From Chiloscyllium plagiosum (lineage: Eukaryota): a DNA stretch of 64,000 nucleotides. The stretch lies in contig NC_057757.1 of the NCBI RefSeq assembly GCF_004010195.1, positions 4,139,111 to 4,203,110 on the forward strand, read 5' to 3'. Positions 13,468 through 28,584 of the stretch are shown piece after piece; positions within the stretch are counted from its first letter, which is position 1, and each line of letters begins with the position of its first letter. The notes beneath the pieces were generated by a model, which saw only the letters and a list, made by a program, of their open reading frames with translations, ran no database searches and was not told where the DNA came from. The translations under genes were made by a program, and so were the position numbers.

Positions 13468-14430
13468 TTCTGGATTAGTGGTGCTGGAAAAACACACCAG
13501 TTCAGGCAGCATCCGAGGAGCAGTAAAAGCGACGTTTCGGGCAAAAGCCCTTCATCAGGAATACAGGCAGAGAGCCTGAAGGGTGGAGAGATAAGTGAGA
13601 GGAGGGTGGGGGTGGCGAGAATGGAGCATAGAGTACAATAGGTGAGTGGGGGAGGAGATGAAGGTGATAGGTCACGGAGGGGGGAAAGGGTGGAGTGGAT
13701 AGGTGGAAAAGGAGCTAGGCAGGTAGGACAAGTCATGTGGACAGTGCTGAGCTGAACGTTTGGAACTGGGGTGAGGTGGGGGAAGGGGAAATGAGGAAAC
13801 TGTTGAAGTCCACATTGATGCCCTGGGGTTGAAGTGTTCCGAGGCAGAAGATGAGGCGTTCTTCCTCCAGGCGTCTGGTGGCGAGGGAGCTGCGGTAAAG
13901 GAGGCCCAGGACCTCCATGTCCTCGGCAGAGTGGGAGGGGGAGTTGAAATGTTGAGCCACTGGGCGATTTGGTTGATTGGTGCGGGTGTCTCGGAGATGT
14001 TCCCTAAAGCGCTCTGCTAGGAAGCGTCCAGTCTCCCCAATGTAGAGGAGACCGCATCGGGAGCAACGGATACAATAAATGATATTAGTGGATGTGCAAG
14101 TAAAACGTGGACCTGACCAGGTTGTCACGAAGTGAACGGTCTTTGCGGAAGGCGGAAAGGTGTGGGGAGGGAAATATATCCCTGGTGGTGGGGTCTGTTT
14201 GGAGGTGGCGGAAATGTCGGCGGATGATTTGGTTTATGCGAAGGTTGGTAGGGTGGAAGGTGAGCACCAGGGGCGTTCTGTCCTTGATACGGTTGGAGGG
14301 GTGGGGTCTGAGGGCGGAGGTGCGGGATGTGGATGAGATGCGTTGGAGGGCATCTTTAACCACGTGGGAAGGGAAATCGCGGTCTCTAAAGAAGGAAGCC
14401 ATCTGTTGTGTTCTGTGGTGGAACTGGTCC
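13468..14430 (-). mobile_element. Penelope-like element, 5'-truncated, with GIY-YIG endonuclease and hammerhead-containing 3' pLTR
   Basis: ORFs 14085-14402 and 13733-14128 give NIIYCIRC..CGLLYIGETGR..ERFREH..HFN..LGTLQPQGIN; pLTR has CTGATGA-AGGGCTTTTGCCC-GAAACGTC. Confidence 0.9.
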
Positions 14431-14469
14431 GTACCGAGTTTGCCTATGAGGAGGCTGGCTAGCGTGTGG

Positions 14470-14552
14470 GTCAGGATGGCCGAGCGGTCTAAGGCGCTGC
14501 GTTCAGGTCGCAGTCTCCCCTGGAGGCGTGGGTTCGAATCCCACTCCTGACA
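14470..14552 (+). tRNA. tRNA-Leu(CAG), intact
   Basis: 83 nt GTCAGGATGGCCGAGCGGTCTAAGG...TTCAGGT...GGTTCGAATCCCACTCCTGACA, canonical vertebrate sequence; TTTT 13 nt downstream. Confidence 0.97.
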
Positions 14553-14894
14553 AATGGCGTTTAGTTTTCAACTTCCCCAATGCCTGGTCTGTGATCTCGT
14601 TAACGCCATCCCTCCCGGCCACGATTTACAAAAACTGTCCTCTCATGTGTGTCAGCAGTATCTGGGTGTACGGTCCACACCCTCCCCCAGTGTCGATGGG
14701 CCGAATGGCATTTTGTAATGGAGCTCGCGGTAAAACGAGCGGCTGCCGAGAAAGTGTCTGTGTGTCTGCAGGGAGAAACAAGACTCTGCTTGAACTCAGA
14801 CCAGCGACAGAGGCAAAGTGGAAGTGCTTGTTGCTAGGTTGGATGGGGAGAGGCTGGGCAATGGGGGTGTGCCTGTGTTCTTTTTAACAAGCAG

Positions 14895-14922
14895 CATGCT
14901 CTACCGACTGAGCTAGCCGGGC
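14895..14922 (-). pseudogene. tRNA-Lys 5' fragment (nt 1-28)
   Basis: Perfect GCCCGGCTAGCTCAGTCGGTAGAGCATG, then homology stops abruptly. Confidence 0.85.
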
Positions 14923-15192
14923 CTCACACTGCCGGCTGCACCTACCTTGTGCCCGGTTGTGGTCAATTTGTTCCCTCTATTTCCCCAGTGATGTTTTCTG
15001 TTTCAAATATACAAGTGCTGCCGCTGGGAATCGGAAAATAAAACCGACATTACTTACAATCCACAGCTTGGATTTGACACAACTCATCCAGGCTCCTCCT
15101 CCTGCTGCTGACCGGGGAACCTGCAATCACCTCCCTCCCACACACTGCAAACACTCACAACCTGCTGCATTCACACTGTCACAACCGTCAAG

Positions 15193-15231
<39 letters not shown>

Positions 15232-15429
15232 ACAAAGAAAGAGAGAGAGGTGGAGTGGCGAGATGCAGAGACAGAAATAGGTAGAGAGAGACACAGAGAC
15301 AAAGAGAGAGAGAAAGACTCTTGGTGTCTGCGTTTGCACAACTCTGTGCACAGAAACAGCAACTATCCCGGGGAGGAAATTACATGAATTCGCCTCGGCG
15401 TGAAGGGACAAAAGCCATGCTCCAGAGCA

Positions 15430-15502
15430 GTTTCCGTAGTGTCGTGGTTATCACATTCGCCTCACACGCAAAAAGTCCCTACTTCGATCCTGGGTGGCAA
15501 AG
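15430..15502 (+). pseudogene. tRNA-Val(CAC) pseudogene
   Basis: GTTTCCGTAGTGTCGTGGTTATCACATTCGCCTCACACGC...; T-stem and acceptor stem mismatched. Confidence 0.85.
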
Positions 15503-16438
15503 TTGTGCAGCTTTCTGCCTTTTTCTTGCTTACGGGAAACAGGCCGAAACTCTCACATTCCCCATTCGAAGCTGAGAATTGATTCCTGGGGACAGGGTCA
15601 GTGACCTTGGCCGGTGTGGCAATGCTGGGAGACAGTGTGAAAGCTGCTGGATGCGAGAAAGGCCCTTAGACAGTGGAGCAGAAATTACACCAGTTGGCCC
15701 ATCGAACCTGCTCTGCCTGATAAATGGCTGATAAATTCACTGGACTGACCTTGTGATCAAATATCCCTCCCCTAGGCCAGGATTTGAGCGACTGCTGCTT
15801 CAGGGACGATTTACAAAAAAACATCCTTCAAATGTTTGTGTCAGTGAGTGTGAATGTGTGCAGCCTCTTTGTGTGCGGCCCATACCCTCCCCCAGTGTCA
15901 ATAATAAAAGCAGCAGCACTCGGTAATGAAGCTCTCAGTAAAATGAGCGGCAGAGAGAGAGAGAGTCTGTGTGTCACTGCACTCCATCAAACTGCAGGGA
16001 GAAACAAGCCTCTGCTTAAACTCAGAGGCAAAGTGGAAGTGATTGTTATCGAGATTAGAGCCGTGCTGGAAAAGCACAAGCAGGTCAGGCAGCATCCGAG
16101 GAGCAGGAAAGTCAACGTTTCGGGCAAAAACATCATTCCTGATGATTGACACTGTTCCTCCCCCAGGCCGTGATTTGAGCTCCCCCCCCCCCCCCGCTTC
16201 TCCAGGGATGATATACAAAAAAACACCCTTTAATGTTTGTGTCTGAAATTGTGAGCAGTCTCTGTGCGGCGCACACACCCTGCCCCAGTGTCGATGATAA
16301 AGGCAGCAGCACTCGGTAATGGGGCTCTCAATAAAGCTTCTGCGTGTGCCGTTGCACTCCATCAGACTGCAGAGAGAAACGAGCCGACACGTTGACGCAG
16401 AGCAATGAAGGTTTGTGTTTTTAAACAGGCTAGCGCAG

Positions 16439-16513
16439 CGCCCAATGTGGGGGTTGAACCGCCAACCGTGAGATTAAAAGTCTCGTACTCTCTCTCTACT
16501 GAGCTAGCCAGGC
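16439..16513 (-). pseudogene. tRNA-Lys pseudogene (CTT backbone, anticodon reads TTT)
   Basis: Lys-like throughout; D-loop replaced by AG repeat, T-arm damaged. Confidence 0.75.
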
Positions 16514-26760: not shown

Positions 26761-26841
26761 ATCAGGAGTGAGACTCAAACCACCAGTTCAAAGACAAGCT
26801 GCAACTTAAATCAGCACCTGTGACCGCTCGGCCAGCCTGAC
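26761..26841 (-). pseudogene. Highly decayed tRNA-Leu pseudogene
   Basis: GTCAGGCTGGCCGAGCGGTC at the 5' end and CACTCCTGA at the 3' end. Confidence 0.6.
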
Positions 26842-27012
26842 CATACTAGCCCCTCATTCCGTTGTAAATGTTCCACACGAAGGCTCAGTCCAGTCAGTGT
26901 CTGCACACACCTCTCTGTTCACACAGACTCTACCAAACTCTCTCACTCACCCACATTCCAGCCTGTTGCTTTGTCAGCCCCCACCTTGAATACAAATCGA
27001 CTCAAACAATGA

Positions 27013-27300
27013 TGCGCGGTGGTTAGCACCGCTACCTCGCAACGCCAGCGTCCCAGGTTCGATCCCCGCTTTGGGCGACTGTCTGTGTGGCGTTTGCACA
27101 TTGTTTGCACGCGGGTGCTCCGGTTTCCTCCCACAGTCCAAAGATGTGCAGGTTGAAATGAATTGGGCGTGCTAAATTGCCCATAAATGTGAGGTGTATT
27201 AGTGAGAGGGAAATGGCTGGGTGGGTTACTCTTCCGAGGGTCGGTGTGGACAGGTTGGGCCGAAGGGAGTGTTTCCACACTGTAGGGAATCTAATGTAAT
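27013..27300 (+). mobile_element. HE1-type SINE
   Basis: tRNA-like head GGTGGTTAGCAC..GGTTCGATCCC, body, CR1-like tail ending AATCTAAT. Confidence 0.85.
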
Positions 27301-27618
27301 CCTATCCATGCCCCTCATAATTTTATAAACCTCCATGAGGTCATCCCTCAGCCTCCGACGCTCCAGGGAAAACAGCCACAGCATATTCAACCTCTCCCAA
27401 TAGTTCAAATCCTCTAACCCTGGTAACATCCTTGTAAATCTTTTCTGAACCCTTTCAAATTTCACAACATCCTTCCGATAGGAAGGAGACTAGCTTTGCA
27501 TGCAATATTCAAAACGTGGCCTAACCAACGTCCTGTACAGCCGCAACATGACCTCCCAACTCCTGTAGTCAATACCCTGACCAGTAAAGGATAGCATACC
27601 AAATGCCTTCTTCACTAG
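27300..27618 (-). mobile_element. CR1 ORF2 fragment
   Basis: FERVQKRFTRMLPGL..LERRRLR.DLMEVYKIMRG. Confidence 0.85.
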
Positions 27619-27994
27619 GGAGTTGTGACACTCCTCCTGACTTCAGTTGTGAAAGAAACAGACTTCTATCTTTTGAGTCATCACAGGATCTGCAGTCCTC
27701 ACTTATTCCTAAATTCTCCCTGCAGTCTGATGGAGTGCAGCGACACACATACTCTGTGTGTGTGTGTGAACAATACAGAGAGAGTGGGGGGGGGGGGGTG
27801 ATACAGGTACAGATACAGAGACAGAAAGGGAGATACAGACAGATAGAGGCACAGAGATACTCTCAGTGTCAGCGTCTGCACAGCTCTGTGCACAGAAACA
27901 GCCAATATCCTGGGGCTGCCATAGTACCTAATCACATTGAATCACAGGGCTGTCTCCGGGCAGGAATGAACTTGTCACAAAATTCTTTTCCACA

Positions 27995-28025
27995 GTTTCT
28001 CTAGTGTGTTGGTTATCACGTTTGC
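27995..28025 (+). pseudogene. tRNA-Val 5' fragment
   Basis: GTTTCTCTAGTGTGTTGGTTATCACGTTTGC in cassette position. Confidence 0.6.
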
Positions 28026-28417
28026 TGGGAAGTCAGACTCGCTTCCCCTGCCCCAGGCGGGTTTACAGAGCCACCGGTTACCATTTCTGTCTGTGAGTGA
28101 GTGTGACTGTGTGCAATCTCTGTGTGAAACTGATAAGTTTCTCACCCCCATCTCCTGCGGTCTCCAAGGGAACCCTTGATCCTCTTGACCATGAGGAACC
28201 TATCTATCTATGTCTGTCTTAACTTGGAGGAAATGAGTTCAGTGGGGCAGGAACAGGCTGAAAGGGTGGGTACATGTGACAGAGGGTTAGATAGGTGCAT
28301 GTGGACAGATGTGTGTGAACCGATTCCACCGGCTTCCTGTGAGCTTTGTGGAGCTTGTATGTGTCAGGATGGGCGAGTTTCAGAGAGATGTGTGTGTACT
28401 GCTACTGCGTAGACTGA

Positions 28418-28509
28418 TTCTGGATTAGTGGTGCTGGAAGAGCACAGCAGTTCAGGCAGCATCTAAGGAGCTTCGAAATCGACGTTTCGGGCAAAAGCCC
28501 TTCATCAGG
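28418..28509 (-). mobile_element. Solo Penelope 3' pLTR with intact hammerhead core and 7-bp TSD
   Basis: AGACTGA at 28411-28417 and 28510-28516; ~90% identical to 13468-13560. Confidence 0.85.
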
Positions 28510-28548
28510 AGACTGAGTCTTCCCGTGAGGACGTAGTCGGCTGTGTGC

Positions 28549-28584
28549 GTCAGGTTGGCCGAGCGGTCTAAGGCGCTGCGTTCA
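28549..28584 (+). pseudogene. tRNA-Leu 5' half
   Basis: GTCAGGTTGGCCGAGCGGTCTAAGGCGCTGCGTTCA, then deleted into spacer. Confidence 0.85.

Follow-up and report, generated by a model that had tools for sequence, protein, structure and literature searches.

The two insertions and the tRNA-Leu cassettes

The window analysed here is the whole 64,000-nt stretch of Chiloscyllium plagiosum DNA (G000:C48:4139111-4203110), and searches were run against the 3.56-Gb genome. It carries two insertions of a Penelope-like element, both on the minus strand and each next to a tRNA-Leu sequence on the plus strand. A preliminary description had read them as independent insertions at the same site, 39 nt upstream of two tRNA-Leu genes, and as possible members of a tRNA-targeted Penelope family.

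The first copy (13468–14430, minus strand) is 963 bp long, 5'-truncated, endonuclease-positive (EN+), and belongs to an older subfamily with the short form of the 3' end. As that description had stated, a GIY-YIG endonuclease match is present, located at 13979–14083 on the minus strand (PF01541, E 2.5e-05, 24.9 bits with a cut-off of 22.6). The body of this copy is about 91% identical to each of the four long relatives compared, and the copy is for this reason considered the older one. A segment of 127–128 bp, present in relatives L090 and L086 and encoding the Cys linker, is absent at 14105/14106. Element sequence runs on past 14430 in other copies, so host DNA resumes exactly at 14431, where positions 14431–14433 (plus strand) may be a 3-nt remnant of the duplication (GTA vs. 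GGA). A minimal core with CUGAUGA, stem II, and GAAAC at 13534–13558 (minus strand), which we take from its motif to be hammerhead-like, lies in the pseudo-long terminal repeat (pLTR); the core and stem II of this candidate hammerhead are visible in the predicted fold, and Rfam gave no match. Just upstream of this core, 347–417 loose ends per run, in four runs on public contigs, leave the element at 13562.

The second copy is a solo end of 92 bp from the youngest subfamily (28418–28509, minus strand). It is identical at all 92 positions to five dispersed copies and 98–99% like the 34 places that rank next. Its 5' end is a common, preferred stopping point of the family. The 7-bp duplication reported for this copy is perfect, with AGACTGA at 28411–28417 and again at 28510–28516 (plus strand).

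Host DNA begins at 14431 and 28510, and both right junctions do lie 39 nt ahead of the +1 position of a tRNA-Leu sequence. The two copies share the site as far as the 5' junctions are concerned, but the left host DNA stops at -37 in one copy and at -33 in the other, so the 3' junctions are 4 nt apart. The same 3' end is common to both, as described, and yet unremarkable, because it is one of two standard ends of the family: among 122 ends, 61 were short and 61 long, one 35-nt tail apart.

The surroundings, from about 12.7 to 47 kb of the window, are an old, locally amplified cassette of tRNA-Leu(CAG) and tRNA-Lys(CTT) with 11 Leu and 11 Lys matches. The array (12700–47300) is degenerate and few of its members are intact; ARAGORN calls five and Rfam four of the tRNA matches. 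An intact tRNA-Leu(CAG) gene with box B, called by both programs, follows the first copy at 14470–14552 (plus strand). The gene claimed behind the solo does not stand: only a 36-nt 5' stub was recognized by sequence match at 28549–28584 (plus strand), the remainder including box B is deleted, the best box-B match has three mismatches, and neither ARAGORN nor Rfam called a tRNA there. The closest paralog of this cassette (87% alike in the upstream flanks) has a tRNA-Leu stub at 35990–36035 (plus strand), also without box B and with the target segment deleted. The absence of box B from both stubs suggests, without proving it, that the loss of box B preceded the arrival of the solo; it is from this that we infer the relative order of deletion and insertion.

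Empty paralogous sites were found as described. The segment at 43115–43122 (plus strand) lies 41 nt ahead of the intact tRNA-Leu gene at 43156, the segment at 46053–46060 (plus strand) lies 46 nt ahead of the degenerate tRNA-Leu at 46099, and another is at 25782–25789 (minus strand). The last of these belongs to the closest paralog of the 13468 site, an empty target at 25779–25808 (minus strand) that accompanies a degenerate tRNA-Leu copy at 25660–25742 (minus strand, 81% identity). The distance from the target segment to +1 in the empty paralogs is 41, 46, and 47 nt, so the spacing of 39 nt is not constant. The other intact Leu(CAG) genes found (two on C17, one on C3, and window 43156) are all empty. 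None of the 40 matches scored in a DNA search with the empty site was another cassette outside the window, and pairwise alignments revealed related cassettes on two unplaced contigs (L042 and L043). Pairwise alignments were used since the multiple alignment of 11 cassettes misplaced the 28549 row at an upstream tRNA stub.

In four paralogs (window 21465–21490, 33190–33215, 28325–28335, and 35975–35990), deletions of 8–33 bp start in or beside the same GGACTGAG-like segment. A break-prone or open-chromatin spot in the cassette could draw insertions and deletions alike, which would fit the deletions that begin in or beside this segment in the upstream stub of 28549 as well as in three paralogs (21504, 33230, and 35990). 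However, the paralogs are only 40–78% alike with indels throughout the cassette alignment, and upstream of the 166 other tRNA or tRNA-like genes sampled there is no excess of element edges. Such a spot is an extremely improbable cause of the pair.

Independence of the insertions

The ends shared by the two copies match at 82 of 92 positions, compared with 79 matches over 108 aligned positions in the adjacent flanks (Fisher p=0.007), which agrees with the claim that the ends are more alike than the flanks. The 13468 copy has three to five changes from its own nearest relatives and 10 of 92 from the solo. In the tree of 94 rows, a branch with 96/94 support holds the solo and excludes the 13468 copy; most branches of this 92-column tree lack resolution and the bootstrap had not converged, and only the split between the two copies was used. 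The paralog 25742, closest to the first cassette, is empty. Comparison of elements with flanks thus did not reduce the two copies to one duplicated insertion. A single ancestral insertion is unlikely because the copies differ in subfamily, divergence is greater in the flanks than in the ends, and paralog 25742 is empty. Judged from these comparisons, which include the five identical dispersed copies of the solo, the proposal that the insertions are independent is supported.

One old insertion could still have been duplicated with the cassette and one of its copies later shortened and overwritten by a young member through gene conversion. The register of the 5' junctions is identical, and an upstream junction with a tRNA stub occurs in both filled cassettes and also in 25742 and 35990, so these appear to be one sub-group. 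The window also has an older Penelope end duplicated with its flanks by local duplication (17399–17499 and 18218–18468, about 86% alike). This course nevertheless requires a precise loss at 25742, conversion of the full 92 bp, and a 7-bp duplication that stayed perfect while the flanks diverged by about 27%, together with a 4-nt shift of the left junction, and has hardly any probability.

Target-site preference of the family

The family is large, with 17,552 exact matches to the 20-nt 3' end and 11,157 to a 33-mer in the genome. GACTSA precedes 10 of the 17,552 exact ends; about 4–7 are expected from base composition if half of the ends are short forms, and since the two numbers are close, no specific GACTSA target is recognized. 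The sequence-directed insertion proposed earlier is retained in a looser form. From 420 blocks, 164 target sites were defined by duplications, the length of which peaks at 13–16 bp. The profile was built from 133 of them, with duplications of 12–16 bp; flank-picked loci, two repeat artefacts, the window, and one duplicate were left out, and the focal sites are therefore absent from the training set. It is a palindrome, ACTnGRC|W and W|GYCnAGT on both sides of a featureless AT-rich 14-nt core, and not a GACTGA-like consensus. Its information is 3.02 bits, whereas none of 100 control runs exceeded 0.98; a profile restricted to the 43 sites with a duplication of exactly 14 bp, where alignment is unnecessary, gave 2.55 bits, and its controls did not exceed 1.05. 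Both half-sites are visible without symmetrising, young and older subfamilies have the same profile, and in leave-one-out scoring 59% of held-out true sites were above the 95th percentile of random DNA. In a logo of the left flank alone (50 ends), the single feature was A at -1 (54%), and GACTGA was matched no better than in the control; the reading of no preference was dropped because the motif emerged once both sides were aligned on the duplications.

Duplications tend to be short or absent in non-inverted copies, where 55 of 79 ends have no more than 7 nt, and long in inverted copies, where 117 of 131 ends have at least 12 nt; the inversion-junction pattern has 2,526 matches, some of them counted on both strands. 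Sequence-specific retroelements of the R2 type recognize one long conserved target sequence. The element here is unlike them, with total target information of about 3 bits and only the ten GACTSA-preceded ends given above.

At the locus itself, the empty paralog 25742 scores 6.6 bits, which is the 99.9th percentile of host DNA, and its right cut coincides to the nucleotide with the left junction seen in the 13468 copy. In that copy, the predicted 14-nt core between the staggered cuts is at 13454–13467 (plus strand), with its right end at the same junction. The reconstructed pre-insertion sites are in the 97th percentile (13468) and the 94th (solo), and the top-strand cut of the solo alone is in the 98th.

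Relation to tRNA genes

Steering of the family by the RNA polymerase III (Pol III) machinery to about -39 of tRNA genes would resemble the TRE5 elements of Dictyostelium. According to passages of PMC5911963, TRE5 inserts 40–54 bp upstream of tRNA genes, TRE5 and the yeast element Ty3 are drawn there through TFIIIB, and TRE5-A needs box B. The two focal copies are similar to TRE5 in position (-39 vs. 40–54 bp upstream) and in their orientation opposite to the gene, and two independent 5' junctions exactly at -39 are what such steering would give. Box B is intact at 14470 and absent at 28549, however, and absent also from the closest paralog of the latter, while TRE5 targeting needs it in the same passages (PMC5911963).

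The family-wide counts argue against such steering. One common tRNA A-box has 135 genome matches, compared with the 17,552 exact element ends. The tRNA sample was picked without regard to the element and comprised 169 unique genes, two of which were dropped due to short or gapped upstream DNA; the remaining 167 were 129 ARAGORN calls and 38 A-box matches uncalled by ARAGORN, and 166 were used after leaving out the focal gene. None of these 166 other tRNA or tRNA-like genes had a Penelope edge at -55 to -25, where the rate of edges at greater distances upstream (1 per 4,165 nt) predicts 1.2. In the first 100 nt upstream there were five edges (-6, -17, -65, -71, and -79) and about four expected. 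From the side of the element, none of 198 element-picked loci, with flanks of about 0.2–1.5 kb, holds an ARAGORN tRNA gene. The pattern of a solo-type end followed by an A-box has 20 matches genome-wide, mostly to sequences resembling short interspersed nuclear elements (SINEs), with spacers that range over 35–64 nt without a peak at the focal distance; apart from the focal site, a single match is tRNA-derived, a tRNA-Ser gene that the end abuts at -1. In the opposite orientation, the pattern has ten matches genome-wide and no tRNA gene among them. The target motif was not enriched at a fixed place upstream of 96 tRNA genes, where the mean predicted rate was mostly 0.4–1.8 with three single-position spikes.

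These counts put the upper limit on an excess near tRNA genes at about 2.4-fold for all Penelope families, and roughly 60–120-fold for the young subfamily alone. A tRNA-targeted family and Pol III-directed targeting, the central suggestion of the preliminary description, are not supported. As a family rule, Pol III steering is refuted, and as the cause of this pair it is highly improbable. Unlike TRE5 and Ty3 (as described in passages of PMC5911963), the family is dispersed, has no excess near tRNA genes, and occupies one site of the two without box B. A real but modest pull of the youngest subfamily to the open region upstream of Pol III genes, added to the palindromic preference, is very doubtful. 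If true, it would be the first such bias in a Penelope-like element. In a literature search covering few of the subscription journals, neither a report of tRNA targeting by Penelope nor a palindromic Penelope target profile was found.

Several edges near tRNA sequences were recorded. In L096 (G000:C46:6467902-6470974), a 5'-truncated copy lies in the focal orientation 65 nt upstream of tRNA-Lys(TTT); the shared orientation would fit Pol III steering, and the position is within background expectation. In L238 (G000:C98531, near 9889–9971, minus strand), the end of a young Penelope abuts the first base of the tRNA-Ser(AGA) gene and has short tandem re-copies of the hammerhead region, possibly as a tRNA-Penelope chimera or a product of template switching. 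In L406 and L407, a Penelope edge lies 17 and 6 nt, respectively, ahead of a tRNA-like A-box match uncalled by ARAGORN. Apart from the tRNA cassettes, self-comparison of the window revealed two tandem arrays, at 602–1223 and 51156–51551, with periods near 70 and 37 bp.

Classification and related elements

The element is an EN+ Penelope-like element, as it has the GIY-YIG domain together with pLTR-type ends, the tail, and inverted 5' copies. In passages of Craig et al. 2021 (PMC8557442), a Cys linker defines the EN+ elements of Neptune/Nematis type, and a microsatellite bias is spoken of. Four loci were checked for a CX2-5CxxC linker: it is full in L090 (CX4CxxC), degenerate in L158 and L167, and without a match in L010. 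Motifs similar to those of reverse transcriptase (RT) were read by eye in translations of longer relatives. By its Cys linker the element is probably of Neptune/Nematis type. It resembles the elements described in those passages (PMC8557442) in the C-terminal GIY-YIG domain after the RT, the Cys-rich linker that relatives carry between the two, the strong truncation at the 5' end, the inverted copies, an optional tail of 30–40 bp, and perhaps the candidate hammerhead core. It differs from their microsatellite bias, as the family here inserts into ordinary DNA that fits a loose palindrome, and its duplications are near 14 bp. The same passages (PMC8557442) describe the Poseidon clade without a Cys linker, and the element is unlike it in this respect.

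PAc, a Poseidon element of Anolis carolinensis, cleaves both strands, is predicted to be a dimer, and has two start sites, according to passages of Frangieh et al. 2024 (PMC11167929). The symmetric site with staggered cuts described here is in keeping with this predicted dimer and its cleavage of both strands, and the two 3' ends one tail apart (35 nt here) are also shared with PAc (PMC11167929). In vitro, PAc prefers AT-rich DNA (5'-ATT-3') in those passages (PMC11167929), whereas the flanks here favour GRC|W and W|GYC.

Proposed course of the insertions

Two subfamilies probably inserted separately into two old duplicates of the tRNA-Leu cassette, and a loose palindromic preference together with chance likely explains the pair; the tRNA gene is likely a bystander. 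The GIY-YIG domain, likely as a dimer, would cut W^GYCnAGT once on each strand with a stagger of about 14 nt; one of the two nicks would then prime reverse transcription, which could begin at either of two sites in the RNA. The nicks would be at -36/-50 in the older copy and at -32/-46 in the young solo. On joining of the truncated 5' ends, an overhang loss of 11 nt in the older copy and 7 nt in the solo would place both 5' junctions at -39. The focal duplications, 3 nt or less at 13468 and 7 nt at the solo, are short for the family.

The probability that two random insertions of the same orientation fall within 4 nt of paralogous positions is 1.5e-4, or 3.7e-4 inside the array. With 0.3–0.5 young ends per window and about 55,000 windows, roughly 0.4–1 such pairs per genome are expected without the motif, a rough estimate that treats the paralogy in this window as typical. 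By a further rough estimate, the motif lifts this expectation several-fold and the exact 5' match cuts it about tenfold. Pure coincidence, where the pair is one of many draws from a very large family in a repeat-rich genome and sequence has no role, has in its favour this expectation, the density of about one Penelope block per 4–5 kb, and an unexceptional solo site. It is rather unlikely, as the motif is real and both observed left junctions are on high-scoring cuts.

Several points weigh against separate insertion guided by the palindromic preference. The solo site scores only moderately, at the 94th percentile, and the two other profiles put it at the 86th–90th. For the bottom strand, the scores at -39 are in the 35th–75th percentile, so the motif does not predict the match of the 5' junctions, and this exact match, about 1 in 10, is left to chance. 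The coincidence is rare per window, at the value given above, and expected only across all of the windows. Most target sites in the profile derive from inverted copies on one contig (C1), and some of the 55 short-duplication ends are probably misplaced boundaries. No empty allele of the 13468 site was found among public contigs, which is uninformative either way with about 100,000 repeat-derived contigs per run.

The profile is a measured target preference for a vertebrate element of probable Neptune/Nematis type, with two mirror-image half-sites about 14 nt apart, and it predicts how the GIY-YIG endonuclease cuts. Insertion sites common to paralogs can arise without common descent, and this matters where such sites are used as markers.

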